Positions 1,513-25,250 of a DNA stretch of 56,600 nt are shown piece by piece; positions within the stretch are counted from its first letter, which is position 1, and every line of letters starts with the position of its first letter. This DNA comes from Candidatus Nomurabacteria bacterium. GTDB lineage: Bacteria > Patescibacteriota > Minisyncoccia > Phycocordibacterales > UBA9973. A model generated the notes under the pieces. The model worked only from the letters and a program-made list of their open reading frames with translations. It made no database searches and was not told the DNA's origin. Position numbers and translations under genes: made by a program. The stretch is from the NCBI GenBank assembly GCA_026395895.1, contig JAPLXV010000003.1, positions 1 through 56,600 on the forward strand. Reading direction: 5' to 3'.

Positions 1513-2037
1513 ATGCTTAATAAATTCAAAATTTTTACTGTTTTTATTGGCTGTCTATTATTTAGATTGCTCCCTTTAAGAGCACCTAATGTGGAGCCGA
1601 TAATGGCTTCTATTATGCCCCTAGGACGCAAATTTGGAGCCTTGACGGGTTTTTTATTTGGCTTCCTATCTATTATTATCTATGATCTTTTTACTCATTT
1701 TGGGGCTTGGACTTGGACGGTATCCATAACCTATGGGCTTGTTGGAATAGCTTCTTTTTTTTATTTTAAAAGGTTTAAATCTTCAGCTTTTAACTTTGCA
1801 GTTTTCGCATTTTTTGCCACCATAATTTTTGATTTAATAACTGGAGTTTTATTTGCTCCAATGTTTGGGCAAACTATGCTTAATGCTTTAGTTATGCAAA
1901 TTCCTTTTACTGCCCTGCACCTAGCAGGGAATATTGGTTTTGCACTTACTTTAAGTCCGCTTATAAACAAGTGGCTTGCGTCCGAACAATTTTTTGCACT
2001 AAAAACAAGTCCCTCATTGTCAGGAGCAAAAATTTAA
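1513..2037 (+). CDS. Polytopic membrane protein of unknown function (weak DUF6580 / ECF S-component-like N-terminal motif)
   Basis: 174 aa ORF, hydrophobic throughout, with an RLLPLRAPNVEPIMA motif near the N-terminus. It lies 6 nt after ligA. Confidence 0.7.
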   Translation: MLNKFKIFTVFIGCLLFRLLPLRAPNVEPIMASIMPLGRKFGALTGFLFGFLSIIIYDLFTHFGAWTWTVSITYGLVGIASFFYFKRFKSSAFNFAVFAFFATIIFDLITGVLFAPMFGQTMLNALVMQIPFTALHLAGNIGFALTLSPLINKWLASEQFFALKTSPSLSGAKI

Positions 2038-3649
2038 TGTAGATTAAGAACATGGAGGCGTCGCATAGCGGTCTAGTGCACCATCTTGGAAAGGTGGCAG
2101 ACCTGAAAGGGTTTCGAGAGTTCAAATCTCTCCGCCTCCGCAATTTTTCAAAAAGGGTTTCCGAATGCAAAATGGGGTCGGCGCGAAGCGCCGACACTAA
2201 TGTATTTCCCCCGCCGAATTCAGAATCCAAAAGGGTTTTCCACGCTCCGCGTGGCTCAAAAAGTACGGTTCGATCTTTAATTAAAAAGTTCGAACCGACT
2301 TTTTTAAACAAATGAAGATTTTCTTCATTTGTTTTCTCGTTTGCCAATTCCATATTGTATATATTGGCTTTTAGGAATTTGTCGGTAAGTTCGAACCGAT
2401 TATGAGATTTTTTCTCAAAAGCTAGTAATTTCTCTTTGAGAAGCTGTTTTGAGCTAACCAACTTGTTTTTAGATTCGCGATATTCGTCGAGTGAAAGTGC
2501 ATTTTCAAGATAAGCGTTCATCAGCTTCTCAACTTTTGAATCCAAAAGAGAAATTTCATCTTTTGTTTTTTGAGAAAAAATCTCACTCGATTGATTTTCT
2601 GATTGTCGGTCTTTCTCATTTTCGACAATCATCCAATTTGCCCAATCGAGTGGCGAAGAAACTTTTTTGATTTCTTCCTTAATTTGAGAAGTGATGATTT
2701 CCTTACGAACATATTTTTGCAAACAAGGATTTTTCCGTTTGGTACAGCGAAGATAATTATGACCTTTTTGTGTTTCGGTAGTTATAAAACATCCACATTC
2801 TCCACAACGGAAAAATCCTCTATACAAAAATGGTTTCAATCCTTTGCTATGCGGTTTAGATTTTCGGCTCATCACTTCTTGAACAGAATCAAAAAGTTTC
2901 TTTGTGATAATCGGCTTGTGCTTTCCTTCGTATATTTCACCACCATATCTCATCAAGCCAGTGAATATCGGATTTCTCAAAATTTGTTGGTAGTTGGAAA
3001 CGGAAAGCACCTTTCCATTCTTTCTACTCAATCCAAGAGCGTTAAACTTATCGTGGAGCTGTCGCAAAGTGAAATTTCCAGTTGCGTAGGCCTCAAATGT
3101 TTTCTTGATTAACGGAGCAATATTTTCATCTGGTACTATTCCAGCACCTTTCACATTTACATAACCCAGAGGCGACATTTGAGGCCATATACCGTCTTTC
3201 ACTTTGTTTCTGTGCCCACGCTTGATATTCTCACTCAAATTGTCCACATAGTACTTGGATTGCGAAAAAGCAATGGAAAGCATGAACTTACCTTGTGGAG
3301 TTGTATCACACCAGAAAGTTGGAAAATTAAGCTCGGCAATTTTTCCCGTATCGAGCAAATATATTATCTTTCCACCATCAACAGAATTACGAGCAAGGCG
3401 GTCTGGATGCCACGCTAAAATTCCACTTGCCTCATTTGCTTCGATACGGAGAAGCATTTCATTAAATACTGGCCGACCCGGAGCTTTAGCGGTTTGTTTC
3501 TCCACGAAAATATCTACAACCTCAATTTGTTCTTTAACCGCTAACTCTTTGAGTTCGGCCAGTTGGTCTGAAATGCTTCTAACTTGCCGATCTTCTGTGT
3601 CGGTAGATTTTCTAGTGTATATAAAAAATTTTCTAGTTTGGTTATTCAT
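1961..3649 (-). CDS. Large serine recombinase (integrase); ORF reads through attL and antisense to tRNA-Ser
   Basis: N-terminal resolvase motif IYTRKSTDTEDRQ..SISDQ, a recombinase domain, a zinc ribbon (CGECGC...LRCTKRKNPC) and a coiled coil. There is no stop before 1961, so the last ~100 codons come from the X arm, the tRNA antisense strand and the 3' end of the preceding gene. Confidence 0.9.
   Translation of the reverse strand: MNNQTRKFFIYTRKSTDTEDRQVRSISDQLAELKELAVKEQIEVVDIFVEKQTAKAPGRPVFNEMLLRIEANEASGILAWHPDRLARNSVDGGKIIYLLDTGKIAELNFPTFWCDTTPQGKFMLSIAFSQSKYYVDNLSENIKRGHRNKVKDGIWPQMSPLGYVNVKGAGIVPDENIAPLIKKTFEAYATGNFTLRQLHDKFNALGLSRKNGKVLSVSNYQQILRNPIFTGLMRYGGEIYEGKHKPIITKKLFDSVQEVMSRKSKPHSKGLKPFLYRGFFRCGECGCFITTETQKGHNYLRCTKRKNPCLQKYVRKEIITSQIKEEIKKVSSPLDWANWMIVENEKDRQSENQSSEIFSQKTKDEISLLDSKVEKLMNAYLENALSLDEYRESKNKLVSSKQLLKEKLLAFEKKSHNRFELTDKFLKANIYNMELANEKTNEENLHLFKKVGSNFLIKDRTVLFEPRGAWKTLLDSEFGGGNTLVSALRADPILHSETLFEKLRRRRDLNSRNPFRSATFPRWCTRPLCDASMFLIYIKFLLLTMRDLFLVQKIVRTQATCL
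2054..2140 (+). tRNA. tRNA-Ser (anticodon GGA), no encoded CCA
   Basis: Acceptor GGAGGCG/CGCCTCC. Anticodon stem CCATC/GGTGG with loop TTGGAAA. Long variable arm. T arm GAGAG-TTCAAAT-CTCTC. Discriminator G at 2140. Confidence 0.9.
2144..2257 (+). repeat. X arm (P' arm of the att site), diverged inverted repeat of 3671-3784
   Basis: Collinear with the reverse complement of 3671-3784. Both encode EPRGAW....GGN...ALRAD....SE.LFEKL and keep the hairpins CCACGC-GGA-GCGTGG and GTCGGCGC-TTC-GCGCCGAC (CGGCAC-TTC-GTGCCG in X'). Confidence 0.75.
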
Positions 3650-3670
3650 ATTGTTGTATTGGCTAGCGAG

Positions 3671-3784
3671 GAGCCACGCGGAGCGTGGCGAATCCTTTCA
3701 GAATCAGGATTTTTTGGGGGGAATTCAGAACAGACGGCACTTCGTGCCGATCATTTTTTTGGTTCCGAAGCCCTTTTCGAAAAA
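3671..3784 (-). repeat. X' arm, inverted copy of the X arm
   Basis: See 2144-2257. It abuts core TTGCGG at 3785-3790. Confidence 0.75.
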
Positions 3785-3790
3785 TTGCGG

Positions 3791-4016
3791 TATTCATTGT
3801 ACAAAATTCGAACCTTTTTTGAAAGCAATCCTGATGAAGAAATCTGAAACAATGCGGACGAAGTTTTGCGGAAACAATTTTCTGGGGAAAGGATTCCGCA
3901 AAACTTCGGCTGATTCCTTTTTTCTGAATTCGGATGTCGCAAGCGGAGGAGGAGGGGTCTGGGGAGGAATCCTCCGCTTGCTCCTCTTTTTGTTTTGGCA
4001 AAATTCGGGCGGGCTT
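3791..4016 (+). repeat. Y arm: 226 bp inverted repeat, near-identical to 6046-6271
   Basis: I count 4 mismatches against the reverse complement of 6046-6271. Perfect internal stems CGAAGTTTTGCGGAA 3859-3873 / TTCCGCAAAACTTCG 3894-3908 and GCAAGCGGAGGA 3939-3950 / TCCTCCGCTTGC 3970-3981. Confidence 0.9.
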
Positions 4017-4032
4017 CCATAAAAAATACAGA

Positions 4033-4061
4033 TTGATAAAATCCATAATTTTTGCTATCAT
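4033..4061 (+). promoter_or_regulatory. Candidate sigma-70 promoter for the element cargo operon
   Basis: TTGATA 4033-4038, 17 nt spacer, TATCAT 4056-4061, about 60 nt upstream of the XRE gene. Confidence 0.35.
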
Positions 4062-4120
4062 TGTTTTGTGAGCAAAGAAAGTAATCACTCATAAGATAAT
4101 ACTATCAAAGTTTGGATACT

Positions 4121-4318
4121 ATGGCAACTATATCAGAAAACATAAAACGAATACGAACAAAACAAGGATTGACGCAAGACGACTTGTCGAAGAAAGCGGA
4201 CATCAAATACTCTACCCTGACAAAAATTGAGGGTGGCGTCGTTACCAAACCAAGCGTTCAAACAATTCAAAAAATCGCCAAGTCGTTAGGCGTTTCCATT
4301 GAGGAATTATTAAAATAA
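4121..4318 (+). CDS. XRE-family helix-turn-helix transcriptional regulator
   Basis: NIKRIRTKQGLTQDDLSKKADIKYSTLTKIEGG..KPSVQTIQKIAKSLGVSIEELL is a classic HTH_3 pattern. ATG at 4121 is preferred over the TTG at 4112 in the track. Confidence 0.85.
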   Translation: MATISENIKRIRTKQGLTQDDLSKKADIKYSTLTKIEGGVVTKPSVQTIQKIAKSLGVSIEELLK

Positions 4319-4329
4319 CTTAAAAAATT

Positions 4330-4941
4330 ATGTATATACCACTTTGGATAATTGTTATCGGTGTCGTCGTATATTTCTTTTGGGCTAAAAACAAAAAAGA
4401 AAAACCGGAACACAAAAAAGAAGCAACCCCGCCTTTAAATGACAAAAGAACAAGTTTGAATCCTTTATTTTCTGAAGAAGAAATAGCTCGCAAAAAAGAA
4501 ACCGCAGACAAATGGCAAGAATATGTTGTGCAGTATTTTGATGAGTTGTTCAATCAAGAAAAAAAAGAAGTAGAAGCTCACCAGAAATCTGGTAAAGATA
4601 AGGACACTTTCAAGCCAAGTGAAAAACTTATAGGCATTATTCAAAAACAATCAATGTCATTATTGGGACGAAATAATGCAATGAAAGATTATCGAAAAAT
4701 GATTGAATCCAATATTGCTATTATTAACGGAGGAGAAATTGAGAAAGTGGAAAAAACATATTGGGATCAAATGTGCCATATTCCTTACGATAACTTTGAC
4801 ATTATTTATAACCCCGATATTTATTTGGACGATAAAGAAATGAAGGAAATGTACAATAGCAATATGGAGCATCGCAAGAAATTCTGGAAAGACAGTTGGG
4901 ACTACATTCTTAAAAAAGAGTATGTGCAGAAAGAAGACTAA
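4330..4941 (+). CDS. Hypothetical protein with N-terminal transmembrane anchor (element cargo)
   Basis: 203 aa ORF with N-terminal IPLWIIVIGVVVYFFW, then a charged K/E-rich region. I recognise no family. Confidence 0.6.
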   Translation: MYIPLWIIVIGVVVYFFWAKNKKEKPEHKKEATPPLNDKRTSLNPLFSEEEIARKKETADKWQEYVVQYFDELFNQEKKEVEAHQKSGKDKDTFKPSEKLIGIIQKQSMSLLGRNNAMKDYRKMIESNIAIINGGEIEKVEKTYWDQMCHIPYDNFDIIYNPDIYLDDKEMKEMYNSNMEHRKKFWKDSWDYILKKEYVQKED

Positions 4942-4965
4942 TTATTAAAATAACTTAAATACACT

Positions 4966-5502
4966 ATGGACAAAAATAATATAAAACCAAAAGAATTATT
5001 TGAGAAATTAAAATCGGTTGGATTAGCCGAAGAAGTAAGCCCATTTTTATTAAAAGGAATAGATACTCACACTGAAAAAGATAATTTGGGTGGGTATTTA
5101 GTGTTAGAAGATCTAAAAGATTTTATTAAGAAAAAACTACCGTCCCTAGAGCAAAAAATAAGTGGCTGGGCAAAAGGAGGAATGCGTTCTTATACTAAAG
5201 ATGAGTTACTTGCATACGAACAAAGCAAGGTGCTTATTGATTTGCTTGAATCAACGGGTGGAAACGGCGAAAAACTTAGGGAATATTGGTTATCACATTG
5301 TCCAACACAACACAAAACAATCAAGGAATCAAAATTGTTTGACTCAAATAGTGAAGAAACAGAAGTTTTTGATAAAGTTCTTGGAAAAATCGTGAAAGAT
5401 GGTGGTGACGAAAATGATGAGAATTTTTTAAAGGAAGTTGAAAAGCGTTTGGGACACCCAATCAAAAACTTTTTTGATTGGTCGCTTCCTAGCGAAAAAT
5501 AA
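4966..5502 (+). CDS. Hypothetical protein (element cargo)
   Basis: 178 aa ORF on the same strand and tightly spaced. I recognise no family. Confidence 0.6.
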   Translation: MDKNNIKPKELFEKLKSVGLAEEVSPFLLKGIDTHTEKDNLGGYLVLEDLKDFIKKKLPSLEQKISGWAKGGMRSYTKDELLAYEQSKVLIDLLESTGGNGEKLREYWLSHCPTQHKTIKESKLFDSNSEETEVFDKVLGKIVKDGGDENDENFLKEVEKRLGHPIKNFFDWSLPSEK

Positions 5503-5503
5503 A

Positions 5504-6040
5504 GTGGAATTTTCAGAAATTCTTAAAAGTATAGAAAGTAAGTCTACTAAAGCAAACCATGAGTTGATTTGGGCTTATTTTTTTATTTTTCACTTAAACA
5601 AAGAAAAATCTTTTGACTATGAAGTTGAGGAAGGTCCAAATGACTTAACCGATGTTTATGCAAAATCTAAAAGCGAAAAGTTTCCAGTTTTGAAATTACA
5701 ACTTACATGGGCAAAAGAAAAAGATTTCAGTCCTAAAATAGTAATTAAGGATTTGAAGTTTAGTACAGAAATTATTTTAGAAGCCGTTAAAAGAAAATAC
5801 GAAAAGTATGAAAAACAAGGTAAAGCGGATTCACTAAATGAAATAATTCTTGTTATACAAGGCGACCTTCCAAGTGGGTGGGATGATTTAGTTGATGATA
5901 AAAAAATAAAAGAAGAAATTGTAAAATATCCTTTTCGTGGAATTTATTACATTACTCCACCTGGAACTAAATCATCCTTGAAAGATAGAACGCCTATTAT
6001 GCATAACGGATTCGTTCTATGTTTCAAGGAGGCATTTTAA
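5504..6040 (+). CDS. Hypothetical protein (element cargo); start uncertain (GTG 5504 or ATG 5438)
   Basis: The ORF is open over 5438-6040. GTG at 5504 lies 1 nt after the upstream stop, whereas ATG at 5438 would overlap by 65 nt. Confidence 0.55.
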   Translation: MEFSEILKSIESKSTKANHELIWAYFFIFHLNKEKSFDYEVEEGPNDLTDVYAKSKSEKFPVLKLQLTWAKEKDFSPKIVIKDLKFSTEIILEAVKRKYEKYEKQGKADSLNEIILVIQGDLPSGWDDLVDDKKIKEEIVKYPFRGIYYITPPGTKSSLKDRTPIMHNGFVLCFKEAF

Positions 6041-6045
6041 TTTAT

Positions 6046-6271
6046 AAGCCCGCCCGAATTTCGCCAAAACAAAAAGAGGAGCAAGCGGAGGATTCCTCCC
6101 CAGACCCCTCCTCCTCCGCTTGCGACATCCGAATTCGGAAAAAAGGAATCAGCCGAAGTTTTGCGGAATCCTTTCCCCAGAAAATTGTTTCCGCAAAACT
6201 TCGTCCTCATTGTTTCAGATTTCTTCATCGGGATTGCTTTCAAAAAAGGTTCGAATTTTGTACAATGAATA
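6046..6271 (-). repeat. Y' arm, inverted copy of 3791-4016, abutting the attR core at 6272-6277
   Basis: See 3791-4016. Confidence 0.9.
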
Positions 6272-6307
6272 CCGCAAATGGTTTTTTTATGCTAAAATTG
6301 TAGGTAT

Positions 6308-6816: not shown

Positions 6817-6954
6817 TTAGAAAAATAATGTAACGAAGTGAAATATATTTTTCTTAACCCTGTTAAATAATTTTTGCAAGGTAAAAATTGCCCGAAGGGC
6901 ATTTAACAGGGTGATGATTTTTATACTCATTACATTCGTTAAAAATCAATCATG
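6817..6954 (+). ncRNA. Structured leader element, copy 1 (ends at the ATG of the cupin gene)
   Basis: Shares TTAGAAAAATAA...ATATTTTTCTTAACCC..GTTAAATAATTTT...TTTAACAGGGTGATGATTTT...AAAATCAATCATG with 27631-27776. There is a 12 bp stem 6857-6868/6901-6912 enclosing two hairpins. Confidence 0.55.
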
Positions 6955-7350
6955 AAAGGATTTAATGTAAACATAGAGAAAGAAACTTTGGAGAATACAA
7001 ATTTTCGCAAAGTTTTATATACGGGCAAACATAGCCAGTTGGTTTTAATGAGTTTAAAACCCAATGAAGAAATTGGCATGGAAGTTCATACTGACAACGA
7101 TCAATTTTTCCGCATAGAAAGCGGACATGGCAAATGTATTATTGATGGTAATTCCTATGACCTGATCGATGGGTCGGTTATTATTGTTCCTTCTGGTGCT
7201 CAGCACAATGTCATCAATACATCCAGCTCAGAAGATTTGAAACTCTACACAATTTATTCTCCAGCTCATCATCAAGATGGGGTAGTAAGATTTACTAAAG
7301 CAGAAGCGGAAGCCGACAGTCCAGAATTTGATGGAAAAACAACGGAATAA
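6952..7350 (+). CDS. Cupin domain protein
   Basis: GMEVHTDNDQFFRIESGHG...VIIVPSGAQHNVINT shows cupin motifs 1 and 2. Confidence 0.85.
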   Translation: MKGFNVNIEKETLENTNFRKVLYTGKHSQLVLMSLKPNEEIGMEVHTDNDQFFRIESGHGKCIIDGNSYDLIDGSVIIVPSGAQHNVINTSSSEDLKLYTIYSPAHHQDGVVRFTKAEAEADSPEFDGKTTE

Positions 7351-9715: not shown

Positions 9716-11530
9716 ATGCTGATTTCTTATAAATGGTTAAAAAATTATGTTCCAGATTTACCAGAGCCAAATAAATTGGTAGATATTTTTACATTTCATC
9801 TTTGTGAAGTAGAAGGAACAAAAAAAACAGAAGACGATACCATTTTTGATTTAAATATTTTGCCGGATAGAGCACATGACTTGCTATCTTATAGGGGAGT
9901 AGCTAGGGACTTAGCAGGGCTTCTGGATATAGAATATAAAGACATAGAGTATAAAATTGAAGTAGGTGGAACTACAAAGCTTTCTATAAAAGTAGAAAGT
10001 GAAAATTGCCGTAGATATATGGGTAGAATAATAAAAAAGGTAGAGGTTTTACCTTCCCCAGACTGGATGAGGAATTATCTTTTATCGATGGACCAACGCT
10101 CAATAAATAATTTAGTTGACGCTTCTAATATTGTTATGTTCGACAGAGGAAATCCTATTCATGTTTTTGATTTAGATAAAGTAGAGGGTAGTATAATAAT
10201 TCGCCAAGCAAAAGAAGGAGAAAAAATGACTACACTAGATAATAAGGAAGTTAAATTAAGTCCTTCAAATATGGTTATTGCCGACGAAAAAAATATTTTG
10301 GCTCTTGCTGGGGTGAAGGGTGGAAAAATAGCAGAAGTAGATGAAAATACAAAAAATATAATTATTGAAGTTGCCAATTTTGATCCGATAAGCGTGAGAA
10401 AAACTTCCAAAGAAGTAAATATATTTACTGACGCAGTAAAGAGATTTGAAAATGATTTATCTCCTGAAGTAGCAAGTGATGCGATAAATGATATGAGCGC
10501 TTTAGTTTTAGAGATGTGTAGAGGTGCTATCTTAGAAGAGGTAGTGGATGTTTATACAAAAAAACAAGAGAAGATAAAATTATCTTTTGATATAAAAAAG
10601 ATATCTAAAAGATTAGGTTTAGATATTTCTATTACTACAGTTCAAGACATATTAAAACGTTTTGGTGTTCTATATAAAAACACTGGTAACAATTTTGAGA
10701 TTATTGTTCCCGATATGAGGCTTGATCTAAAAACAAAAGAAGATATGTCTGAAGAAATAATAAGAATTTTAGGATACGATAAAATAAAACCAAAAATTCC
10801 CAAAATAAATTTTAAACCACAAGTAAACGAGGTATATGCCAAAATTTCTTGGGCAAGAAATAAACTTTTAAACGAGGGATATAGTGAAGTGATGACTTAT
10901 ACTTTTTGTAATAAAGGAGAAGTGGAAGTGCTTGCTTCTGCTTCAGATAAGAAATTCTTAAGAACAAATTTGAGTGATGGATTAAAAGAAAGTCTAAAAT
11001 TAAATCAACTAAATATGCCGTTGCTCGAGATGGATGAAATAAAAATTTTTGAAATAGGAACTGTTTTTTTGGAAGATAAAGAACAGATGAATGTTTGTTA
11101 TGCAGATAAGAAAAATATTACAGAAGTTTCTTTGGAAACGTTTTGTATGAATTCTCCTCTTGAGGAGTACTCCGACTTAAAGTTGGAGGGAGGTGGAGGT
11201 GTTTTCCACCCCGCCTTCGGCACCCCTCAAGAGGGGAATAAATTCAAACTCTGGTCTCTATTTCCATTTATTGTTCGTGACATTGCAGTTTGGGTTCCGG
11301 AAGAAATAAAAAGTGTAGATGTGGAAAAAGTCATAAAAAATAGTATGGGAGAGCTTGTAATTCGAGGTCCAGAACTCTTTGATCAGTTCAAAAAAGATGG
11401 CAAAATATCCTATGCTTTCAGGCTAGTTTTTCAGTCCTACGATAGGACCCTTACAGATGCTGAAATAAACGAAATTATGACTAAAATAACCAATAAAATC
11501 AAGGAGAAAAATGATTGGCAAGTAAGGTAG
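9716..11530 (+). CDS. pheT: Phenylalanine--tRNA ligase beta subunit (short form, no OB-fold tRNA-binding B2 domain)
   Basis: MLISYKWLKNYV start, ILPDRAHDLLSYRGVARDLA, B3/4 and B5 regions, and a C-terminal FDX-ACB-like domain (RDIAVWVPEE...YAFRLVFQS). Confidence 0.93.
   Translation: MLISYKWLKNYVPDLPEPNKLVDIFTFHLCEVEGTKKTEDDTIFDLNILPDRAHDLLSYRGVARDLAGLLDIEYKDIEYKIEVGGTTKLSIKVESENCRRYMGRIIKKVEVLPSPDWMRNYLLSMDQRSINNLVDASNIVMFDRGNPIHVFDLDKVEGSIIIRQAKEGEKMTTLDNKEVKLSPSNMVIADEKNILALAGVKGGKIAEVDENTKNIIIEVANFDPISVRKTSKEVNIFTDAVKRFENDLSPEVASDAINDMSALVLEMCRGAILEEVVDVYTKKQEKIKLSFDIKKISKRLGLDISITTVQDILKRFGVLYKNTGNNFEIIVPDMRLDLKTKEDMSEEIIRILGYDKIKPKIPKINFKPQVNEVYAKISWARNKLLNEGYSEVMTYTFCNKGEVEVLASASDKKFLRTNLSDGLKESLKLNQLNMPLLEMDEIKIFEIGTVFLEDKEQMNVCYADKKNITEVSLETFCMNSPLEEYSDLKLEGGGGVFHPAFGTPQEGNKFKLWSLFPFIVRDIAVWVPEEIKSVDVEKVIKNSMGELVIRGPELFDQFKKDGKISYAFRLVFQSYDRTLTDAEINEIMTKITNKIKEKNDWQVR
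11192..11242 (+). repeat. GC-rich hairpin module in frame in pheT (shares a 22-mer with trmD)
   Basis: GGTGGA 11192-11197 / TCCACC 11205-11210. CACCCCTCAAGAGGGGAATAAA at 11221-11242 is identical to 24809-24830. It encodes GGGVFHPAFGTPQEGNK. Confidence 0.8.
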
Positions 11531-11552: not shown

Positions 11553-13631
11553 ATGGCTAAAGAAAAAGAAGTAAAAAATGGGCACCATTATGATGCCTCT
11601 GATATCTCTGTTTTAGAAGGACTTGATCCAGTCAGACGTCGTCCAGGAATGTATATCGGAACCACCGGTCCAGAAGGTTTACACCATCTCGTTTGGGAAA
11701 TTTTTGATAACTCGCGCGATGAAGCGATGGGTGGTTTTTGTGATGATATAGAAGTTGTCCTTTTGCCGAACAATCGTATTCGAGTGGCAGACAATGGGCG
11801 AGGTGTGCCTGTTGATATTCACAAAAAAACTAAAGTATCTGCTTTGGAAACTGTTATGACTACTCTGCATGCTGGAGGAAAATTCGGTGGAGAAGGCTAT
11901 AAAGTTTCTGGAGGCTTGCATGGAGTGGGAGCGTCAGTAGTAAATGCGCTCTCAATTTATTGTAAAGCGGAAGTGCATAAAGATGGTGGTAAATATATAC
12001 AAGAATATTCTCAAGGTAAGAAAAAAGCTTCAGTAAAAAAAATTGGGTCTTCAAAATTACATGGAACCATCATTACTTTTGAACCAGATCAAGAAATTTT
12101 TAAAGATATAAAGTTTGATTTAAGTACAATTATAAATCATATTCGTCAGCAAGCTTATTTAGTTAAAAAATTAAAAGTTTCAATAATAGATGCGCGAGGT
12201 TGGGATAATAAAAAAGGACTTGATGACTCTGACGTATTTTATTTTAGAGATCTTGGCATAGAACTTCCCTCCACTTCTTTTTATTTTGAAGGAGGATTGA
12301 TTTCTCTTATAAAATATTACAACAAGTTTCAAAAACCACTTCACGATCATATTTTTTATGTTGAAAAAGAATTGGACGGTGTGATGGTTGAAATAGCTTT
12401 ACAATATGTTGATGACATTGTTGATAGAATAATTCCTTTCGCAAATAATATACATACCGCTGAAGGTGGGACACATGTGACTGGTTTTAAAACTGCTCTT
12501 ACTCGCACCTTGAATACTTATTGTAAAAAGAATGAAATGATGAAAGATTCAGAAGGTGGATTTACCGGCGATGATGTACTGGAAGGTCTTACAGCTGTCA
12601 TTTCGGTGAAGTTAAGAGAGATACAATTTGAAGGTCAAACCAAGGCAAAATTAGGCTCTATGGAGGCCCAAGGAGCTGTTGGGACAATTTTTGGGGAGGC
12701 TTTTGCTGCTTTTCTAGAGGAAAACCCAGATGAAGCAAAAGCTATAATAAATAAGTCTATTTTGGCCTTAAAAGCTCGTAAAGCAGCCAAAGCGGCTAAA
12801 GATTCAGTTCTTCGTAAAGGTGCGCTTGAAGGTATGACCCTGCCTGGAAAATTAGCAGATTGCCAAAGCAAAAGTGCAGAAGATTCAGAATTATTTTTAG
12901 TAGAAGGAGATTCGGCAGGAGGTTCGGCTAAACAAGGTAGAGATAGACGCACTCAAGCCATTCTTCCGCTTCGTGGAAAAATTTTAAATGTTGAACGTGC
13001 TCGCATAGATAAAATGCTTGCTTCTAAAGAAGTAAGAGCTCTGGTTATTGCGATGGGTACTTCTATTGGAGACACTTTTGATCTTTCTAAAATGCGTTAT
13101 CACAAAATAATTATTGCCACAGATGCTGATGTGGACGGTGCGCACATTCGCACCCTTTTGCTGACTCTTTTTTATAGATATTTTAGACAAGTTGTGGACG
13201 CGGGCTATATTTATATTGCTCAACCACCACTTTATAAAATAAAAAGAGGAAAGGAAGTTAGTTATGCATATTCCGATGAAGAGAAAATAAAAATTATCGG
13301 TAAAGAAACAGATGTAAGTGAGATACAAGCGGTTAATGATGAAGAACCCCTACCCGACCTCCCCCTTAGTAAGGGGGAGGAGAAAGGAGGGGGTCTAGAG
13401 TCTAAACAATCTACAAAAATTCACATTCAGCGTTATAAAGGTCTCGGAGAAATGAACCCAGAAGAACTTTGGGAAACAACCATGGACCCAGCTCATCGAG
13501 TATTAAAAAAAGTAAATATAGATGATGCCGAAGAGGCCAACAAAATTTTTGAAATTCTGATGGGTTCCGAAGTTCCTCCTCGAAAATCCTTTATCCAATC
13601 TAATGCTAAATTAGCAGAGATTGATATTTAA
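11553..13631 (+). CDS. gyrB: DNA gyrase subunit B
   Basis: YDASDISVLEGLDPVRRRPGMYIG, GGLHGVGASVVNALS, EGDSAGGSAKQGRDR, PLRGKILNVE, QRYKGLGEMNPEELWETTMDP. Confidence 0.97.
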   Translation: MAKEKEVKNGHHYDASDISVLEGLDPVRRRPGMYIGTTGPEGLHHLVWEIFDNSRDEAMGGFCDDIEVVLLPNNRIRVADNGRGVPVDIHKKTKVSALETVMTTLHAGGKFGGEGYKVSGGLHGVGASVVNALSIYCKAEVHKDGGKYIQEYSQGKKKASVKKIGSSKLHGTIITFEPDQEIFKDIKFDLSTIINHIRQQAYLVKKLKVSIIDARGWDNKKGLDDSDVFYFRDLGIELPSTSFYFEGGLISLIKYYNKFQKPLHDHIFYVEKELDGVMVEIALQYVDDIVDRIIPFANNIHTAEGGTHVTGFKTALTRTLNTYCKKNEMMKDSEGGFTGDDVLEGLTAVISVKLREIQFEGQTKAKLGSMEAQGAVGTIFGEAFAAFLEENPDEAKAIINKSILALKARKAAKAAKDSVLRKGALEGMTLPGKLADCQSKSAEDSELFLVEGDSAGGSAKQGRDRRTQAILPLRGKILNVERARIDKMLASKEVRALVIAMGTSIGDTFDLSKMRYHKIIIATDADVDGAHIRTLLLTLFYRYFRQVVDAGYIYIAQPPLYKIKRGKEVSYAYSDEEKIKIIGKETDVSEIQAVNDEEPLPDLPLSKGEEKGGGLESKQSTKIHIQRYKGLGEMNPEELWETTMDPAHRVLKKVNIDDAEEANKIFEILMGSEVPPRKSFIQSNAKLAEIDI
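13346..13394 (+). repeat. GC-rich palindromic module in frame in gyrB (family 3)
   Basis: 10 bp stem CCTCCCCCTT 13358-13367 / AAGGGGGAGG 13371-13380. Outer pair ACCCC 13346-13350 / GGGGT 13390-13394. It encodes PLPDLPLSKGEEKGGG just upstream of the RYKGLGEMNP motif. Confidence 0.8.
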
Positions 13632-16721: not shown

Positions 16722-17417
16722 ATGATTCAATTTTCAGGTTTTGAAAAAAATACAAAAGTGATTTTTAAAGATAAAAATTTATTAAAACAGGCTTTTATCC
16801 ATCGTTCCTATATAAATGAGAATCCGGGTTCTAATCTTTCACACAACGAGCGTTTGGAATTTTTAGGAGATGCAGTACTGGAGCTTGTTGTGACTGATTT
16901 TCTTTATAAAAAATATCCGAATTATACAGAAGGAGAATTAACTGCTATTCGTTCAGCTTTAGTAAATGCCATTATTATTTCTGAAGTTGCTTCAAAAATT
17001 GGGATGAATGATTACTTACTTTTATCTAAGGGCGAAGCTAAAGACAACGGTAAAGCCAGACAATATATTTTAGCTAATACGTATGAAGCGTATATTGGAG
17101 CGGTTTATTTGGATCAAGGCTATAATGCTGTAAATAAATTTGTCACTGCCACTCTTTTACCGCACACAGAAGAAATTGTGGCTAAAAAACTTTGGCGTGA
17201 TGCTAAAAGTTTGGTACAAGAAAAAGCCCAAGAATTTGTTGGAGTTACTCCTGCTTATAAAGTTTTACACGAATCGGGTCCTGACCATGATAAACATTTT
17301 ACGGTAGGTATTTTATTTGGCTCTGATTTAATTGCTGAAGGAAAAGGAAAATCAAAACAAGAAGCGGAACAGAAGGCTGCCGAAATGGCATTAAAAGTGA
17401 AAAATTGGATGGAATAA
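16722..17417 (+). CDS. rnc: Ribonuclease III
   Basis: NERLEFLGDAVLELVV signature and a C-terminal dsRBD (GPDHDKHFTV...GKGKSKQEAEQKAA). Confidence 0.95.
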   Translation: MIQFSGFEKNTKVIFKDKNLLKQAFIHRSYINENPGSNLSHNERLEFLGDAVLELVVTDFLYKKYPNYTEGELTAIRSALVNAIIISEVASKIGMNDYLLLSKGEAKDNGKARQYILANTYEAYIGAVYLDQGYNAVNKFVTATLLPHTEEIVAKKLWRDAKSLVQEKAQEFVGVTPAYKVLHESGPDHDKHFTVGILFGSDLIAEGKGKSKQEAEQKAAEMALKVKNWME

Positions 17418-17418
17418 T

Positions 17419-19566
17419 ATGCGACTAAAAAACCTTGAAATAAATGGCTTTAAATCATTTTCTAAAAAAACTGTTTTGGAGTTTCAAAATTCGATTGTGG
17501 CTATTGTCGGTCCCAATGGATCTGGTAAATCAAATGTAGTGGAAGCTTTGCGTTTTGTTTTAGGCGAACAGTCAATGAAATCAATGCGTGGGTCATTGGG
17601 AGCTGATTTGATTTTTAAAGGGTCAAAAAACTTACCCAAAAGTTCCCGAGCAACTGCTACTATATATTTTAATAACTCTGATAAAATTTTTAAACTTTCT
17701 AATGAAACAGGAGAAAATATAAATTTAAATTATGATGTTATTTCAATTTCTCGTGAAGTTTTTTCTGATGGCTTAAATAAATATATTTTGAATGGTTCAG
17801 AAGTAAGATTAAAAGATATTAATAATCTTTTATCCTCAGTTAATATTGGTTCTTCTGGGCACCATATTATTTCGCAAGGTGAGGCGGACAGAATTCTAAA
17901 TGCTTCTCCTAGGGATAGAAGGGAAATGGTAGAAGATGCTCTTGGACTTAAAATTTACCAATATAAAATAAAAGAAGCGCAACGCAAATTAGAAAGAACT
18001 ACCGACAATATGAAAGAGGTTTCACTTTTGCGTCGAGAAAATGCTCCGCATTTAAATTTTCTAAAAAAACAAGTAGATAAATTTGAAAAAGCAAAAGAAA
18101 TGCAGGTAACATTGTTATCTCTTTATAAAGAATACTTAAAGAAAGAAAGTGTTTATTTAGAAAAAGAACAATCAAATTTACTTTCAGAAAAAAATAAAAT
18201 TTCTTTAGAGTTGAAAAACGTAAAAGAGAAAATCTCTGATACAGATGAAACTGAAAAGAGAGGAGAAAGTGAAAAAGAAAAAGAATTAAAAGTATTTGAA
18301 AAAAAGATAAGTGAAATTCATGCAGTCAAAAATGAAATAGAACGCAAATTGGGAAGAATTGAAGGAATTCTTGAATCAAAAGGAAATAAAGTTAAAATTT
18401 CTGGTAAATGTCCTTTATGTGGCAGTGAAATTAAGGAAAAAGAAGAAGGTCAGATAGAAAAGAGACAAAATGATGAAAAAGAATTGGAAGAATTAAAAAA
18501 TTCTCAAGCTGGTATTCTAGCTGAAATGGAGAATTTAAAAAATGAGGAGGGAAATATTTTTGAAAAAATAGAAATATTGAAAAAAGAAATTAATCAAGAG
18601 AATGAAGCTCTGCATATAAAAGAAAAGGAGAAATTTAATTTTAGAGTTAGGCACCAAGAGTTATCCTCTTCTTTAGATCTAATTTCTGTCAAAGAACAAA
18701 ATCTTAAAAGAGAGATAGAATCTTTCGAAAATGAAATAAAAGAAGGTGAAGCTTTAATTGGAAGTGAAATTTTGTCTTATAAAAATTTTGAGGTGAATGA
18801 AATAATTGATAGAAATGCGCAAGAAGAATCAAGACGAAAAATTGAACGTATAAAAATGAAGTTAGAAGACGTTGGTGTGGGTGGAGGATCAGAAGTAATG
18901 AAAGAATATGAGGAAGTTTTTCAAAGAGATAATTTTTTAGCCAAAGAGATGGAAGATTTAGCTGTAAGTATAGAGTCTCTTCGAAAATTGATGGCAGATT
19001 TGAAAGAAAAAATAGATATAGAATTTAAAGAGGGTATTAAGAAAATAAATGTAGAGTTTGATAAATTCTTTTCTTTGATGTTTGGCGGAGGAACTGGCTA
19101 TCTTGCAATTGTTGTTGAAAGTAAAAAGAAGAAAGAAGCCCCGACGCTCGAAGAGGTCGGGGTCCCGACTCCTGATGAAGATCAGGACGTCGGGAAAGAA
19201 ATCGTTCCTGAACAAGGCATTGAAATTAATGTTTCGCTTCCACATAAAAAAGTGAAAGAACTGAATGCACTTTCTGGAGGAGAAAGGTCTCTTACCTCTA
19301 TTGCTCTTCTTTTTGCTATGTCCCAAGTAAATCCACCGCCATTTTTGGTACTTGATGAAACAGATGCTGCGCTAGACGAAGCAAATTCTCGCAAATATGG
19401 GGATATGCTAGAAAAACTCTCTCATCACTCTCAGCTTATAGTCGTTACTCATAATAGGGAAACAATGTCTCGCGCTGGCATTTTATATGGCGTCACTATA
19501 GGTTCCGATGGTGCCTCCAAACTTCTCTCTGTCAAACTGGACGAAGCCGCCGCAATTGCAAAGTAA
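17419..19566 (+). CDS. smc: SMC-family ATPase, short form (715 aa) with no recognisable hinge and a central CPLC motif
   Basis: SMC-type heads: GFKSFSKKTVLEF...GPNGSGKSNVVEALRFVLGEQS at the N-terminus and LSGGERSLTSIALLFAM...FLVLDETDAALDEAN...VVTHNRETM at the C-terminus. The middle is all coiled coil, with GKCPLCGSE at aa 331-334. Confidence 0.85.
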   Translation: MRLKNLEINGFKSFSKKTVLEFQNSIVAIVGPNGSGKSNVVEALRFVLGEQSMKSMRGSLGADLIFKGSKNLPKSSRATATIYFNNSDKIFKLSNETGENINLNYDVISISREVFSDGLNKYILNGSEVRLKDINNLLSSVNIGSSGHHIISQGEADRILNASPRDRREMVEDALGLKIYQYKIKEAQRKLERTTDNMKEVSLLRRENAPHLNFLKKQVDKFEKAKEMQVTLLSLYKEYLKKESVYLEKEQSNLLSEKNKISLELKNVKEKISDTDETEKRGESEKEKELKVFEKKISEIHAVKNEIERKLGRIEGILESKGNKVKISGKCPLCGSEIKEKEEGQIEKRQNDEKELEELKNSQAGILAEMENLKNEEGNIFEKIEILKKEINQENEALHIKEKEKFNFRVRHQELSSSLDLISVKEQNLKREIESFENEIKEGEALIGSEILSYKNFEVNEIIDRNAQEESRRKIERIKMKLEDVGVGGGSEVMKEYEEVFQRDNFLAKEMEDLAVSIESLRKLMADLKEKIDIEFKEGIKKINVEFDKFFSLMFGGGTGYLAIVVESKKKKEAPTLEEVGVPTPDEDQDVGKEIVPEQGIEINVSLPHKKVKELNALSGGERSLTSIALLFAMSQVNPPPFLVLDETDAALDEANSRKYGDMLEKLSHHSQLIVVTHNRETMSRAGILYGVTIGSDGASKLLSVKLDEAAAIAK
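19139..19195 (+). repeat. 57 nt double-hairpin module in frame in smc (family 1, TCCCGAC/GTCGGGA)
   Basis: CCCCGAC-N10-GTCGGGG, then TCCCGAC-[TCCTGAT GAAG ATCAGGA]-C-GTCGGGA. It encodes APTLEEVGVPTPDEDQDVGK. Confidence 0.85.
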
Positions 19567-21485: not shown

Positions 21486-23611
21486 TATGTTGTTAGCGCA
21501 TAATCTATCGTTTTTCTTTCTAAATCAACACTTTTTACTTTTATCTTTACTCGGTCGCCTAGTCTGTATTTTTTCCCCGACGCTTTCGGTCGGGATCCCG
21601 GCCCCAAAGGGCGTCGGGACTTTTTCCCTTGTCCGACTAGTTCCAATTTTTTTTCATTAAAAATATAAAAATTATCTTCCATATCTCGTACTCGTACCAG
21701 ACCCTCGCATTTTGTTTCTACTTCTTCTACATAAATACCCCATTCTGTTATACCACTAATAATACCTTCAAATGTTTTTGAAATACGAGAAGACATATAT
21801 TCAACTTGTTTGTATTTTATAGAGGCTCGTTCAGCATCTGAAGCAAATTTTTCTCTTTCTGATGCTTTTCTGGAAATTTCTTCATAGATACTTAATTTCT
21901 CTTTGCCCACTTTTAATCCTTTTAGGTAATCTGTCAAAAGTCTGTGGACTACTACATCTGGGTAGCGTCTGATGGGGGAAGTAAAATGAGCATAGTATTC
22001 AAAAGCCAAACCATAGTGGCCGACATTTTTTGTGGAATAAATTGCTTTGGCCATAGAGCGTATAATTGCGCGATTGACTGTATTTTCTTCATTTTTTCCC
22101 TCAAGACTCTTTAGAAGATTATTTAATTCATAATTTGGAATAACCCCATCAATTAAAGATATTTTATATCCCAAACTCCTTAAAAAGAATGCCAAATCAG
22201 TCATTTTTTCTTTACTAGGATTATCATGGATACGATAGACAAATACTCCTCCATCTTTCTTGGTGCCTTTGGAGATAGTTTCAGCCACTTTTTTATTTGC
22301 TAAAAGCATAAATTCTTCAATTAATTTGTTTGAATCACCTCGTACTTTTTTTATTACTTTTAACGGTGTTCCATTTTTATCTAAAACAAATTTTACTTCT
22401 TCTTGTTCGAGCGAGATAGCTCCATTTGCAAATCTTTCTTTGTTCAATTTTTTAGCCAAATTATTTAAAATAAAAAGTTCTTTGTGCAGTGGCGCTGAAT
22501 TTTCTTTTATAGATTTTTCCGCTTCTTCGTAAGTAAATCTTTTTTGAGAATGTATCACCGTACGTCCGTACCATTCTTTTTTTACTTGCGCGTTTTTGTC
22601 TAGGACAAAAACTGCGCTCATGGTCAGTCTGTCTTTATTGGGAACTAGAGAACAGAGGTCGTTAGAAAGTACTTCCGGAAGCATTGGGATAGTTCTATCT
22701 ACTAAATAAACAGAAGTGCCTCTTTTTTTTGCTTCCTTATCAATTTCGCTTCCAATTTTTACATAATGAGAAACGTCGGCTATATGAATTCCGATTTCAT
22801 ATACCTCACCCCCTAACCCCCTCTCCTTGAAACCCCCTTGCTCCCCCTTATCAAGGGGAAACCATTTGCCTCCCCTGACAAGGGGAGGTCTGGAGGGGTT
22901 AAGGAGAGGGGGGAGAATACGGAATGAAATGGCATCATCAAAATCTTTTGCATCATCTGGGTCAATAGTAAAAGTGAGAGTTTTTCTAAAATCGCGTCGC
23001 CCATTATAATCTTCATTTTTAATACCTAAACTTTTTATTTTTTCCGCTTCCTCCTCAACTTTTTGAGGCAGTTCACTATCAAACCCTTTTTCTATAGCGA
23101 TAGCATGCATTTCCGCATTATTGTCTCCGGGTTTTCCTAAAACTTTTATTATTTTTCCTTCTGGTGCTTTTAGTCCATCTTTCCAAAAAATTATTTCTGT
23201 ATAGACTTTTTGTCCTGCCTTTGCGCCATTTAGCATTTTTTCGGGTATTAGAATATCGGTATACATTTTTGTATCATCGGGTTTTAGAAAATATATGCCG
23301 TCTTCTTTCTCTAAGACTCCCGAAAAGCCCATCTTTGCACGAGAGATTATTTTTAATACTTCGGCTGTCAAACGCCCTTTTCCTTTTGGATGCAAAGTAA
23401 TTTCAACCATATCACCGTGCAGAGCTGTATTTAAGTGCCTAAAATCAATCTCAGGGTCCTTCCCGACGTTCTGATTTCTATCAGAAGTCGGGATCCCGAC
23501 CCCATTGGGCGTCGGGACCTCATTCAATATTCTTACATATCCAATACCCTTGCTTGTTATAGATATAATACCCTGTACTGTCTTTTGAATTTTTTTTGTT
23601 TTTCCTTTCAC
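21485..23611 (-). CDS. rnr: Ribonuclease R (start probably GVG-context GTG at 23611; track ORF extends to 23722)
   Basis: Cold-shock/OB N-terminus, an RNB domain (DPDDAKDFDDA, GIHIADVSHYV, VYLVDRTIPMLP) and a C-terminal S1 domain. The 23612-23722 extension overlaps the rpsP start region on the opposite strand. Confidence 0.9.
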   Translation of the reverse strand: MKGKTKKIQKTVQGIISITSKGIGYVRILNEVPTPNGVGIPTSDRNQNVGKDPEIDFRHLNTALHGDMVEITLHPKGKGRLTAEVLKIISRAKMGFSGVLEKEDGIYFLKPDDTKMYTDILIPEKMLNGAKAGQKVYTEIIFWKDGLKAPEGKIIKVLGKPGDNNAEMHAIAIEKGFDSELPQKVEEEAEKIKSLGIKNEDYNGRRDFRKTLTFTIDPDDAKDFDDAISFRILPPLLNPSRPPLVRGGKWFPLDKGEQGGFKERGLGGEVYEIGIHIADVSHYVKIGSEIDKEAKKRGTSVYLVDRTIPMLPEVLSNDLCSLVPNKDRLTMSAVFVLDKNAQVKKEWYGRTVIHSQKRFTYEEAEKSIKENSAPLHKELFILNNLAKKLNKERFANGAISLEQEEVKFVLDKNGTPLKVIKKVRGDSNKLIEEFMLLANKKVAETISKGTKKDGGVFVYRIHDNPSKEKMTDLAFFLRSLGYKISLIDGVIPNYELNNLLKSLEGKNEENTVNRAIIRSMAKAIYSTKNVGHYGLAFEYYAHFTSPIRRYPDVVVHRLLTDYLKGLKVGKEKLSIYEEISRKASEREKFASDAERASIKYKQVEYMSSRISKTFEGIISGITEWGIYVEEVETKCEGLVRVRDMEDNFYIFNEKKLELVGQGKKSRRPLGPGSRPKASGKKYRLGDRVKIKVKSVDLERKTIDYALTT
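21575..21619 (-). repeat. 45 nt double-hairpin module in frame near the rnr C-terminus (family 1, read in a different frame)
   Basis: CCCGAC-GCTTTCG-GTCGGG, then TCCCGGC-CCCAAAGGGC-GTCGGGA. It encodes SRRPLGPGSRPKASG. Confidence 0.8.
22807..22914 (-). repeat. ~108 nt nested multi-hairpin GC-rich module in frame in rnr, just upstream of the HIADVS catalytic motif (family 3)
   Basis: Outer 12 bp stem CCCCCTCTCCTT 22817-22828 / AAGGAGAGGGGG 22901-22912. Inner hairpins CCCCTT-ATC-AAGGGG (22844-22858) and CCTCCCCT-GACA-AGGGGAGG (22869-22888). It encodes PPLLNPSRPPLVRGGKWFPLDKGEQGGFKERGLGGE. Confidence 0.85.
23461..23517 (-). repeat. 57 nt double-hairpin module in frame in the rnr N-terminal region (family 1)
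   Basis: TCCCGAC-[GTTCTGAT TTCT ATCAGAA]-GTCGGGA, then TCCCGAC-CCCATTGGGC-GTCGGGA. Same length, orientation and frame as the smc copy. It encodes VPTPNGVGIPTSDRNQNVGK. Confidence 0.85.
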
Positions 23612-24542: not shown

Positions 24543-25250
24543 GTGAGATTCCATATCATTACAATTTTCCCAGATATTTTTGACTCATACCTCAAAGAGT
24601 CTATTATTGGGCGGGCGATAAAAAATAAGTTTATTTCAGTGAAGTTTTATAATCCTAGAGATTTTATTAGGGGTAATAAAAGTAATTACAAACCAGTAGA
24701 TGACAAGCCTTACGGCGGAGGGCCGGGGATGGTGATGAGAGCCGAGCCAATTCTTAAAGCTATAGAAACCGTAGTAAAAAAGATATCCACCCTGTCTCGC
24801 AAACGAGTCACCCCTCAAGAGGGGAATAAAAAAATATTAATTATCAATTTTATTCCTAGCGCTGAAAAATTTACCACTAATTATGCCAAGACGATTTCCA
24901 AAAAATATACAGATATTATTTTAATTTGCGGAAGATATGAAGGCATAGATGCGAGAGTAGATAAAATTCTCAAAACAAAGAAACTTTCAATAGGGGATTA
25001 TGTTTTGACCGGCGGAGAAATACCAGCTATGATTTTAGTGGATTGCGTTTCTCGCCAAATAGAAGGTGTCCTTGGTAATTTTGATTCAAGGGAAGAAGAA
25101 AGAATCTCTTCAAGCGAAGTTTATACAAGGCCAGAAGTTTTGAAACATAAAAACAAAAATTATAAAGTCCCTAAAGTGTTATTATCTGGGGACCACAAAA
25201 AGATAGAGGATTGGAAAAAGCGCGAGAAGAATGATAAAATAAATAAGTGA
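24543..25250 (+). CDS. trmD: tRNA (guanine37-N1)-methyltransferase TrmD (GTG start)
   Basis: FHIITIFPDIF, DDKPYGGGPGMVM, CGRYEGIDARV, SIGDYVLTGGE, YTRPE, LLSGDHKKIEDW. Confidence 0.93.
   Translation: MRFHIITIFPDIFDSYLKESIIGRAIKNKFISVKFYNPRDFIRGNKSNYKPVDDKPYGGGPGMVMRAEPILKAIETVVKKISTLSRKRVTPQEGNKKILIINFIPSAEKFTTNYAKTISKKYTDIILICGRYEGIDARVDKILKTKKLSIGDYVLTGGEIPAMILVDCVSRQIEGVLGNFDSREEERISSSEVYTRPEVLKHKNKNYKVPKVLLSGDHKKIEDWKKREKNDKINK
24809..24830 (+). repeat. GC hairpin module in frame in trmD (identical 22-mer to pheT)
   Basis: CACCCCTCAAGAGGGGAATAAA encodes TPQEGNK in the same frame as in pheT. Confidence 0.8.

Follow-up and report, generated by a model that had tools for sequence, protein, structure and literature searches.

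In-frame copies of a modular GC-rich palindromic repeat in housekeeping genes of a Candidatus Nomurabacteria genome and the repeat’s association with DUF559 nuclease genes

Several families of short bacterial repeats offer points of comparison for the element described here. Rickettsia palindromic elements (RPEs) are in-frame palindromic repeats of Rickettsia (Ogata et al. 2000; summaries in PMC10969869 and PMC3733652), and repetitive extragenic palindromes (REPs) are also known in intragenic copies (PMC3733652). The CGTC REPs, a class that includes RPE-4 and RPE-6, carry CGTC at one end of a stem-loop with an 8–9 bp stem, a 4–5 nt loop and a 3-nt CCA tail (PMC3733652), and the BoxC/PIT/TMECO repeats of Enterobacteria and Cyanobacteria are intrastrand-triplex repeats (Holder et al. 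2015, PMC4666352). We analysed a window of 56,600 nt, contig C22 (JAPLXV010000003.1) of the 672-kb, 34% GC, 35-contig genome of a Candidatus Nomurabacteria bacterium (G000), in which one GC-rich 22-mer occurs in both pheT and trmD. This 22-mer is the 3′ end of a modular repeat, the A-unit, which is dispersed through the genome, lies in frame in several housekeeping genes, has a terminus conserved to the letter across phyla and is associated with genes for DUF559 nucleases. A full-text literature search returned no description of A-elements in the candidate phyla radiation (CPR) and no reported link between DUF559 and repeats, and the A family, its presence in CPR housekeeping genes, its letter-perfect cross-phylum terminus and its systematic DUF559 partnership all appear to be new.

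The original prediction, made from the window alone, held that the identity of the 22-mer (CACCCCTCAAGAGGGGAATAAA) at 11221–11242 in pheT and 24809–24830 in trmD was beyond chance, and this stands: both copies are on the + strand, 100 shuffles of the window give an expectation of 0, and no further match occurs in the window even at 3 mismatches. Both copies lie inside long open reading frames (ORFs) and share one reading frame, encoding GTPQEGNK in pheT (in the context ...AFGTPQEGNKFKLW) and VTPQEGNK in trmD (...KRVTPQEGNKKIL). The genome-wide mismatch search that had been suggested returned 8 exact copies and 16 within 3 mismatches, which shows that the 22-mer is not confined to the two genes, and the proposed alignment of PheT and TrmD found the peptides missing from the closest orthologues. 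A second hairpin noticed upstream of the 22-mer in pheT is real (GGTGGA, 11192–11197; TCCACC, 11205–11210), and the suggestion that the modules are composite is borne out, as the 22-mer terminates a modular unit that is present as a two-unit inverted doublet in pheT and as a single unit in trmD. These results support a modular, non-chance repeat that is common to unrelated genes and whose family is dispersed through the genome; the full extent of the element (80–96 nt), the spread of its unit across phyla and its link to DUF559 nuclease genes go beyond what had been predicted.

The A-unit is a GC-rich sequence of ~42 nt that consists of TCCACCCCG, a variable hairpin and CCACCCCTCAAGAGGGGAAT. 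At finer resolution, TCCACCCCG is followed by a variable hairpin that is often tagged CGTC...CCA, and then by CCACCCCTC-AA-GAGGGG-AAT. Alignment of the flanks gives the order of the full element as ATTCTCCTCTTGAGGAG, TA, a small hairpin (H2), GGAGGTGGA, a loop, TCCACCCCG, a second small hairpin (H4) and CCACCCCTCAAGAGGGGAAT. The ends of the full element, ATTCTCCTCTTGAGGAG and ATTCCCCTCTTGAGGGG, form an imperfect pair of terminal inverted repeats, and each of them is also a hairpin in its own right. Since the reverse complement of the 5′ half matches the layout of the 3′ half, we describe the full element as an inverted doublet of two related units. An nhmmer profile run over the genome identified 13 full copies (80–96 nt) and about 6 single or partial ones. 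When folded as single-stranded DNA (ssDNA), the termini of the doublet pair over 15 bp and enclose three hairpins (z −3.9 to −4.9), and the single unit forms two hairpins; across doublet and single unit, z ranges from −2.8 to −4.9.

The pheT gene, encoding the phenylalanyl-tRNA synthetase beta chain (9716–11530, + strand), is a 604-aa ORF with the Pfam domains B3_4, B5, tRNA_synthFbeta and FDX-ACB, and holds a full 89-nt doublet at 11151–11239 on the + strand (nhmmer model positions 1–87, E = 1.2e-18). The doublet is read in frame as NSPLEEYSDLKLEGGGGVFHPAFGTPQEGN and corresponds to an insert at about aa 479–508, behind a catalytic-like module and ahead of the FDX-ACB domain, whose first residue is aa 514. 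Its predicted ssDNA fold (−24.2 kcal/mol, z = −4.9) has the paired termini enclosing three hairpins. Specifically, the + strand sequence runs from the terminal hairpin H1 (CTCCTC-TT-GAGGAG, 11154–11167), which is the left inverted-repeat arm of the 5′ unit and an imperfect inverted repeat of 11223–11236, through the variable hairpin H2 (CTCCGAC-TTAAA-GTTGGAG, 11170–11188), to a central hairpin (11190–11213) in which the ‘third-strand’ block of one unit, GAGGTGGA, pairs with that of the other, TCCACCCCG; the fold supports both of these hairpins as well as the variable hairpin H4 that follows (GCC-TTC-GGC, 11213–11221). The 22-mer completes the element with hairpin H5 (CCCCTC-AA-GAGGGG, 11223–11236) and the AAT terminus. 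In our reading, GAGGTG of the central hairpin mirrors GAGGAG, the purine arm of H1. The trmD gene, encoding tRNA m1G37 methyltransferase (24543–25250, + strand), is a 235-aa ORF that carries Pfam tRNA_m1G_MT and matches solved TrmD structures. Its A-unit (STLSRKRVTPQEGN; 24786–24827, + strand; nhmmer model positions 40–87) measures 42 nt, or 14 codons, lies in the helix-to-strand loop of TrmD and contains most of the second copy of the 22-mer.

Seven A copies lie in long ORFs, which by Pfam are pheT, trmD, leuS, tgt, rsmA/ksgA, a UvrD-type helicase and an S-adenosylmethionine (SAM) methyltransferase. All seven share a single orientation and a single frame, reading NSPLEEYP..GG....P....TPQEGN, and the remaining frames mostly hold stops. 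The six doublets inside ORFs measure 80, 83, 83, 86, 86 and 89 nt and thus differ in steps of three, whereas intergenic copies fall into all three residue classes modulo 3, with stops in the coding-copy frame in 3 of 7, a contrast that points to purifying selection on translated copies and none on the rest. Several copies lie directly after or before genes, and the copies within genes occupy loops or linkers that are hypervariable among orthologues. On these sequence patterns, we are confident that A-elements in ORFs are repeat DNA read through as protein. They resemble RPEs in being short palindromes of a reduced, AT-rich genome that lie in frame in unrelated housekeeping genes and are read through at tolerant sites, and in the coexistence of several families in one genome. 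They differ in belonging to Patescibacteria, in their length (42 or ~87 nt, versus ~150 nt for RPE-1), in a terminus that is identical across phyla, and in their association with DUF559, no such partner being reported for RPEs in the literature searched. Because size and host differ, we regard the likeness as an analogy only.

Orthologue comparisons, from which the loop locations were taken together with a gap in the PDB alignment, indicate that the TrmD and PheT inserts are insertions and not ancestral sequence. The two closest TrmD orthologues, 87–88% identical, are without the 14 residues, and the site is a gap relative to Haemophilus influenzae TrmD (4mcb), within the helix-to-strand loop of solved structures. 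The PheT insert lies in the linker ahead of FDX-ACB, which ranges from ~17 to >60 residues within the genus. Among 24 further genomes of the genus, 4 contain the A-element; it was absent from all 16 genomes sampled in the order’s other families. Its copy number varies greatly among sister species. In other species, the corresponding TrmD, PheT and UvrD loops contain unrelated GC-rich palindrome families instead, and the UvrD loop is short and apparently empty in one species. The UvrD-like loop (L225–L230) carries a different GC palindrome family (GGGTGTCTCGCAGGCTGACGAGCCGAGAGGCAGCGCT...) in five relatives, in one orientation in 3 and in the reverse in 2, and the trmD loop of G010 and G024 (L019, L045) holds an (ACGAATT)x3 tandem repeat that is read as TNYELRIKN.

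Conservation of the A-element is seen at the level of nucleotides. Two other assemblies (L104, L166) carry it at exactly the same pheT position, and the four conserved blocks (~60 nt) of these three pheT copies are 100% identical, while the flanking codons differ at 24–35% of positions. H2 and H4 in the same copies have been swapped for different sequences that still pair, the H2 site of L104 and L166 being CCC-TTCA/TTTA-GGG. A hypervariable linker peptide offers no explanation for the identity of the blocks, which suggests that something acts on the DNA itself, be it selection, a sequence-specific reader or repeated conversion. At least 120 stretches from species-representative genomes of many phyla contain an exact copy of the unit’s terminal 19-mer, CACCCCTCAAGAGGGGAAT. 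Among the matches listed, its hosts include Nomurabacteria, Paceibacteria, metagenome-assembled genomes (MAGs) labelled Saccharibacteria and Gracilibacteria, Bacillota, Thermotogaceae, Nitrospirota, Ignavibacteria, Kapaibacteria, Verrucomicrobiota and Desulfobulbaceae, as well as the cultured isolates Pedobacter, Flavobacterium and Parasediminibacterium; nearly all listed matches are preceded by (T)CCACCCCG and a variable hairpin. Searches of phage and plasmid collections yielded the A-unit in 1 viral contig and 0 plasmids. The H4 position takes 105 distinct sequences among 133 cross-phylum units and keeps its hairpin potential, with stems of at least 5 bp in 44% versus 8% after shuffling (best stems average 4.3 bp, range 3–6 bp). 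G.T wobbles make up just 3–4% on either strand, and this scarcity, together with the lack of strand asymmetry, points to DNA palindromes rather than strand-specific RNA.

The genome contains six DUF559 (PF04480) genes, and on inspection all six are bracketed by GC-rich pyrimidine/purine (Py/Pu) modules. In a strict hairpin test that counts only loci with both flanks occupied, 4 of the 6 genes scored, versus 0.27% of random segments, and the genome as a whole has 146 GC hairpins versus 9 after block shuffling; modules were detected through their hairpins, since they escaped an overly strict GC-island detector with 16-nt windows. Among relatives, a Py/Pu hairpin lies within 160 nt at 19 of 28 DUF559 loci and on both sides at 11 of 28, compared with 3.5% of control windows from the same loci. 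Each module type that flanks a DUF559 gene has up to 10–13 dispersed copies. The 50-nt family-B module PLPDLPLSKGEEKGGG, for example, stands on both sides of the DUF559 gene at C34:14062–14382 (span C34:14007–14465), has 13 copies in the genome and is also in frame in tgt. For the A family, the equivalent cassette lies at C9:11128–11611, where the start of the DUF559 ORF (C9:11233–11550), with its unit-encoded N-terminus, lies within an A-unit and its stop within an inverted one, an arrangement kept in G005, a different assembly.

When A-linked DUF559 proteins of Nomurabacteria, of a Limisphaerales MAG and of an unclassified MAG are compared, they share 50–80% identity with one another and 36–45% with the five other paralogues of our genome; they form a lineage of their own across phyla. 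The A-type protein of the Verrucomicrobiota (Limisphaerales) MAG (L193, 1111–1488) is 64% identical to that of G000 C9 over 102 aa, and as this is far above the identity among paralogues within the genome, transfer of the cassette between phyla is suggested. In a survey of 30 DUF559 loci from our genome and its relatives, the G005 gene was the only A-type one (80% identical to G000 C9) and alone had A termini on both sides. A termini thus flank 2 of 2 A-type DUF559 genes, versus 0 of 27 other loci of relatives, and the DUF559 locus in leuS of our own genome has an A-element within its 1.5-kb flank. Residues of a D...ExD...H pattern are conserved in all DUF559 copies and in Escherichia coli YcjD; the sole solved relative, 3HRL, is an uncharacterised “endonuclease-like protein”. 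The leuS gene of our genome itself encodes a complete DUF559 domain (C16:10848–11287) in frame in an ORF of 1165 aa, with triplex-type modules on either side, and the same LeuRS has a large extra domain as well as two module peptides of the form LSFGEG(L/Q)GGV. Three relatives (G042:C23, G010:C43 and G050:C8) likewise have DUF559 inside ORFs of 982–1133 aa.

As an outgroup check we inspected ycjD, the DUF559 gene of E. coli K-12 (region NC_000913.3 1351205–1351464; L194 11206–11465). Past the 3′ end of the gene, at a distance of 168 nt, lies a canonical TMECO/BoxC repeat. From the 23 TMECOs reported in the 4.6 Mb of E. coli (PMC4666352), the chance of one lying this close to ycjD is estimated at ~0.2%; the TMECO paper itself does not mention ycjD or DUF559 (PMC4666352). 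A partial Py/Pu hairpin lies over the ycjD stop codon, and a duplicated remnant of the gene’s own 3′ end (GAATATTCTCCAGCACCGTCTCC) is found nearby.

Each A-unit is built like the repeats of the BoxC/PIT/TMECO class, with a pyrimidine arm and a purine arm joined by a loop and, beyond a spacer, a G/T-rich block in mirror image of the purine arm. On the bottom strand, the 3′ unit reads CCCCTC/GAGGGG followed by GGGGTG, and the 5′ unit reads CTCCTC/GAGGAG followed by GAGGTG. Across the genome there are 478 such hairpin hits, with the mirrored block at most 45 nt downstream in 262 and upstream in 34; for the 192 whose purine arms are not mirror-symmetric, the mirror version is present in 103 and a direct copy in 19, although in the A-unit the mirror relation also admits another reading, as a direct repeat of CCACCCC on either side of H4. 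The pyrimidine–purine–mirrored-block architecture is shared with BoxC/PIT/TMECO repeats, and some modules of this genome, among them CCCTCTCCT-TATTA-AGGAGAGGG-TTA-GGGTGAGGT, fit it closely. Nevertheless, the TMECO consensus (CCCTCNCCC N3–6 GGGNGAGGG N3 GGGNGAGGG) has 0 matches in the genome and 1 beside ycjD in the E. coli control stretch, and the blocks of the A-unit are 6 nt rather than 9 nt long, with a hairpin of 9–30 nt in place of the second ‘loop’. TMECOs are also reported to be always intergenic, restricted to Proteobacteria and unlinked to mobile genes, whereas seven A copies lie in ORFs. Given the absent consensus, the shorter blocks and the hairpin in the second loop, we propose an architectural relationship rather than membership, the A-unit being triplex-type by its sequence design.

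By analogy to REP/REPIN–RAYT systems (REP doublets and their REP-associated tyrosine transposases), A-elements consist of hairpin units that often form inverted doublets, include intragenic copies in replication and repair genes, and bracket an enzyme gene with its own repeat type; the bracketed gene, however, encodes a PD-(D/E)xK DUF559 protein and not an HUH Y1 transposase. They also share with MITEs (miniature transposable elements with inverted repeats) a small size, a non-coding nature, terminal inverted repeats, dispersal and a longer gene-carrying form with the same ends, but the gene in that form encodes a nuclease instead of a known transposase, and no target-site duplication is definable. 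We consider it likely, with a probability of roughly 80%, that the A-element is a selfish modular repeat of the REPIN/RPE kind that is translated where tolerated and has a DUF559 nuclease as its cognate partner, and that it is not a protein motif. Under this model, A copies would land throughout the AT-rich genome, and those surviving within genes would be copies in permissive loops or linkers, in the single open orientation and frame; that frame would yield a hydrophilic, Gly/Pro/Glu-rich peptide and add loop residues to the host protein, 30 aa in PheT and 14 aa in TrmD. A small DUF559 nuclease, Vsr-like with a PD-(D/E)xK fold, would recognise the conserved blocks or the folded structure and nick or cut there, after which host repair or recombination would copy units to new or homologous sites. 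That DUF559 is the cognate partner of A-units we favour with some caution, and we put forward nuclease plus repair as the spreading mechanism only tentatively. Equally speculative is the wider idea that A-units, their sister modules and DUF559 make up an unrecognised minimal class of mobile elements, the PD-(D/E)xK counterpart of REPIN/RAYT, in which each nuclease lineage may maintain its own triplex-type or CGTC-tagged hairpin repeat.

Several observations weigh against the selfish-repeat model with a nuclease partner. The genome is a MAG in 35 contigs. At trmD, pheT and uvrD the flanks are AT-rich, and the hypervariability of the loops, in which other families are frequently lodged, leaves no consistent target-site duplication or clean empty site definable. 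The copy in pheT may have a single, old origin and have been passed on vertically, as in the PheT tree G000 groups with L166 and L104 is unresolved nearby, a topology that would allow one old insertion. To our knowledge, a lone PD-(D/E)xK nuclease has no strand-transfer activity, and by itself such an enzyme cannot explain integration. Two genomes, G007 and G024, hold A-elements with no A-type DUF559 detected, and most units are solo, with DUF559 within 200 nt at 4 of 120 listed cross-phylum loci; on this count we rejected the notion that every unit has a neighbouring nuclease. Conversely, 4 of the 7 DUF559 genes found in the listed cross-phylum loci adjoin a unit. Finally, the cassette occurs in two geometries: the unit termini face the gene in G000 C9 and G005, and point outwards in L109, where DUF559 lies inside a doublet as though inserted into its central loop.

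These two geometries raise the possibility that the nuclease is a homing-type gene that lands in repeats and is not their driver. DUF559 would then itself be selfish and similar to a homing endonuclease, and the repeats would be landing pads spread by slippage, hairpin template switching or recombination rather than by the nuclease. In keeping with such an origin, the gene lies inside a doublet in L109, a DUF559 domain is found in frame inside leuS, most units have no nuclease nearby, and G007 and G024 keep A-elements with no A-type DUF559 detected. Of the features sought in a homing-type element, a DUF559 ORF that keeps its conserved acidic residues is present, and inserts stand at matching positions of pheT, rsmA and tgt in other genomes, though for pheT one old insertion fits the tree as well. 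We nonetheless consider this explanation unlikely: in G000 C9 and G005 the termini face the gene and the ORF starts and stops inside the units, the genomes with an A-type nuclease have the most A copies (19 and 9, versus at most 5 elsewhere), and each DUF559 gene has its own dispersed module family of 10–13 copies, as REP families do with their RAYTs.

A further alternative is that the units are CGTC-tagged REPs, of the class of RPE-4 and RPE-6, mobilised in trans by a genomic Y1 transposase. The CGTC tag is present at the start of the hairpin in 84 of 133 units and a CCA tail (C before CACCCC) in 99 of 140, the doublets resemble head-to-head REP dimers, and the genome has five Y1_Tnp (IS200/RAYT-like) ORFs of 223–243 aa (C15:8217–8564, C33:6960–7181, C16:17232–17453, C27:1581–1817 and C19:12315–12602). 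None of the five, however, is flanked by A-units or Py/Pu modules. Those at C33, C16 and C19 are bracketed by their own CTTG-loop hairpins (e.g. ACAGGC-CTTG-CCTGT), which are unrelated to A-units, and inspection of C15 and C27 revealed no hairpins in the flanks; the genes are present and the units are not associated with them, and we rejected a RAYT/Y1 link. The H4 stems of 3–6 bp are moreover too short for the 8–9 bp of the CGTC REP definition, A-units add conserved CCACCCC blocks and a Py/Pu terminal hairpin to the CGTC REP design (Di Nocera et al. 2013), and CGTC REPs had no associated transposase in the published work (PMC3733652). Mobilisation in trans by a Y1 enzyme therefore seems improbable.

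We regard as slightly more improbable still that the modules are DNA or RNA signals useful to the host, such as terminators, mRNA stabilisers, or protein-binding or triplex sites, with the intragenic copies as tolerated by-products. Their strong ssDNA folds, a mirror-repeat architecture like that of BoxC/TMECO, letter-perfect conservation across phyla and copies beside genes would all suit such signals. Yet scanning the window together with 11 cross-phylum loci against Rfam gave tRNAs only and no family for the unit, the wobble pairs show no strand asymmetry, the distribution is patchy (4 of 24 genomes of the genus) with very different copy numbers in sister species, and copies lie inside essential ORFs, where a terminator would be harmful. 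The remaining explanation, that TPQEGNK is a functional peptide motif arisen by convergence or domain shuffling, as its common frame in pheT and trmD might suggest, or that the identity of the 22-mer is an assembly artefact, is effectively refuted by the absence of the peptide from orthologues, by intergenic copies of the same DNA with stops and conservation at the nucleotide level, and by the same insert at the pheT, rsmA and tgt sites of independently assembled genomes.

If the selfish-repeat model holds, many “lineage-specific insertions” in essential CPR proteins would be repeat DNA read through rather than adaptive sequence, which would matter for annotation, phylogenetics and structure prediction. 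A letter-perfect 19-mer shared from Patescibacteria to cultured Bacteroidota would imply a sequence-specific reader or recent transfer between phyla without phage or plasmid carriers. The bracketing of DUF559 genes would give a testable function to a large uncharacterised nuclease family and, for a question that has stood since the 1990s, would suggest a candidate for the enzyme missing from BoxC/TMECO and CGTC-type repeats. A class of repeats maintained by DUF559 nucleases, were it real, would explain BoxC/TMECO of E. coli (via ycjD), the transposase-less ‘orphan’ CGTC REPs and RPEs, and the in-frame GC-rich inserts of CPR proteins.

The window contains further repeats beyond the two A copies. 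The family-B module PLPDLPLSKGEEKGGG occurs on the + strand at 13346–13395, in frame in gyrB, and by Pfam is positioned between the Toprim and GyrB_C domains. Other in-frame GC palindromic inserts were observed at 680–735 (a 501-aa ORF at the start of the window), 19131–19199 (ORF 17401–19563), 22817–22912 and 23457–23525 (two sites in an RNase II/R-like ORF), 36055–36100 (a 622-aa ORF) and 51240–51280 (a 360-aa ORF); those at 19131–19199 and 23457–23525 belong to a single family and stand inverted to each other in two separate genes. A large serine-recombinase ORF on the − strand (1961–3649) adjoins a tRNA (2054–2140) and is followed by a 2-kb segment with three ORFs between 232-nt inverted repeats that are 98% complementary (3785–4016 and 6046–6277), and the whole of 1961–6277 looks like an integrated or invertible element. 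Lastly, a 60-nt direct repeat, 85% identical between 6898–6957 and 27720–27779 and ending in ...AATCAATCATG(A/C)AA, may represent an upstream or leader region that two genes have in common.

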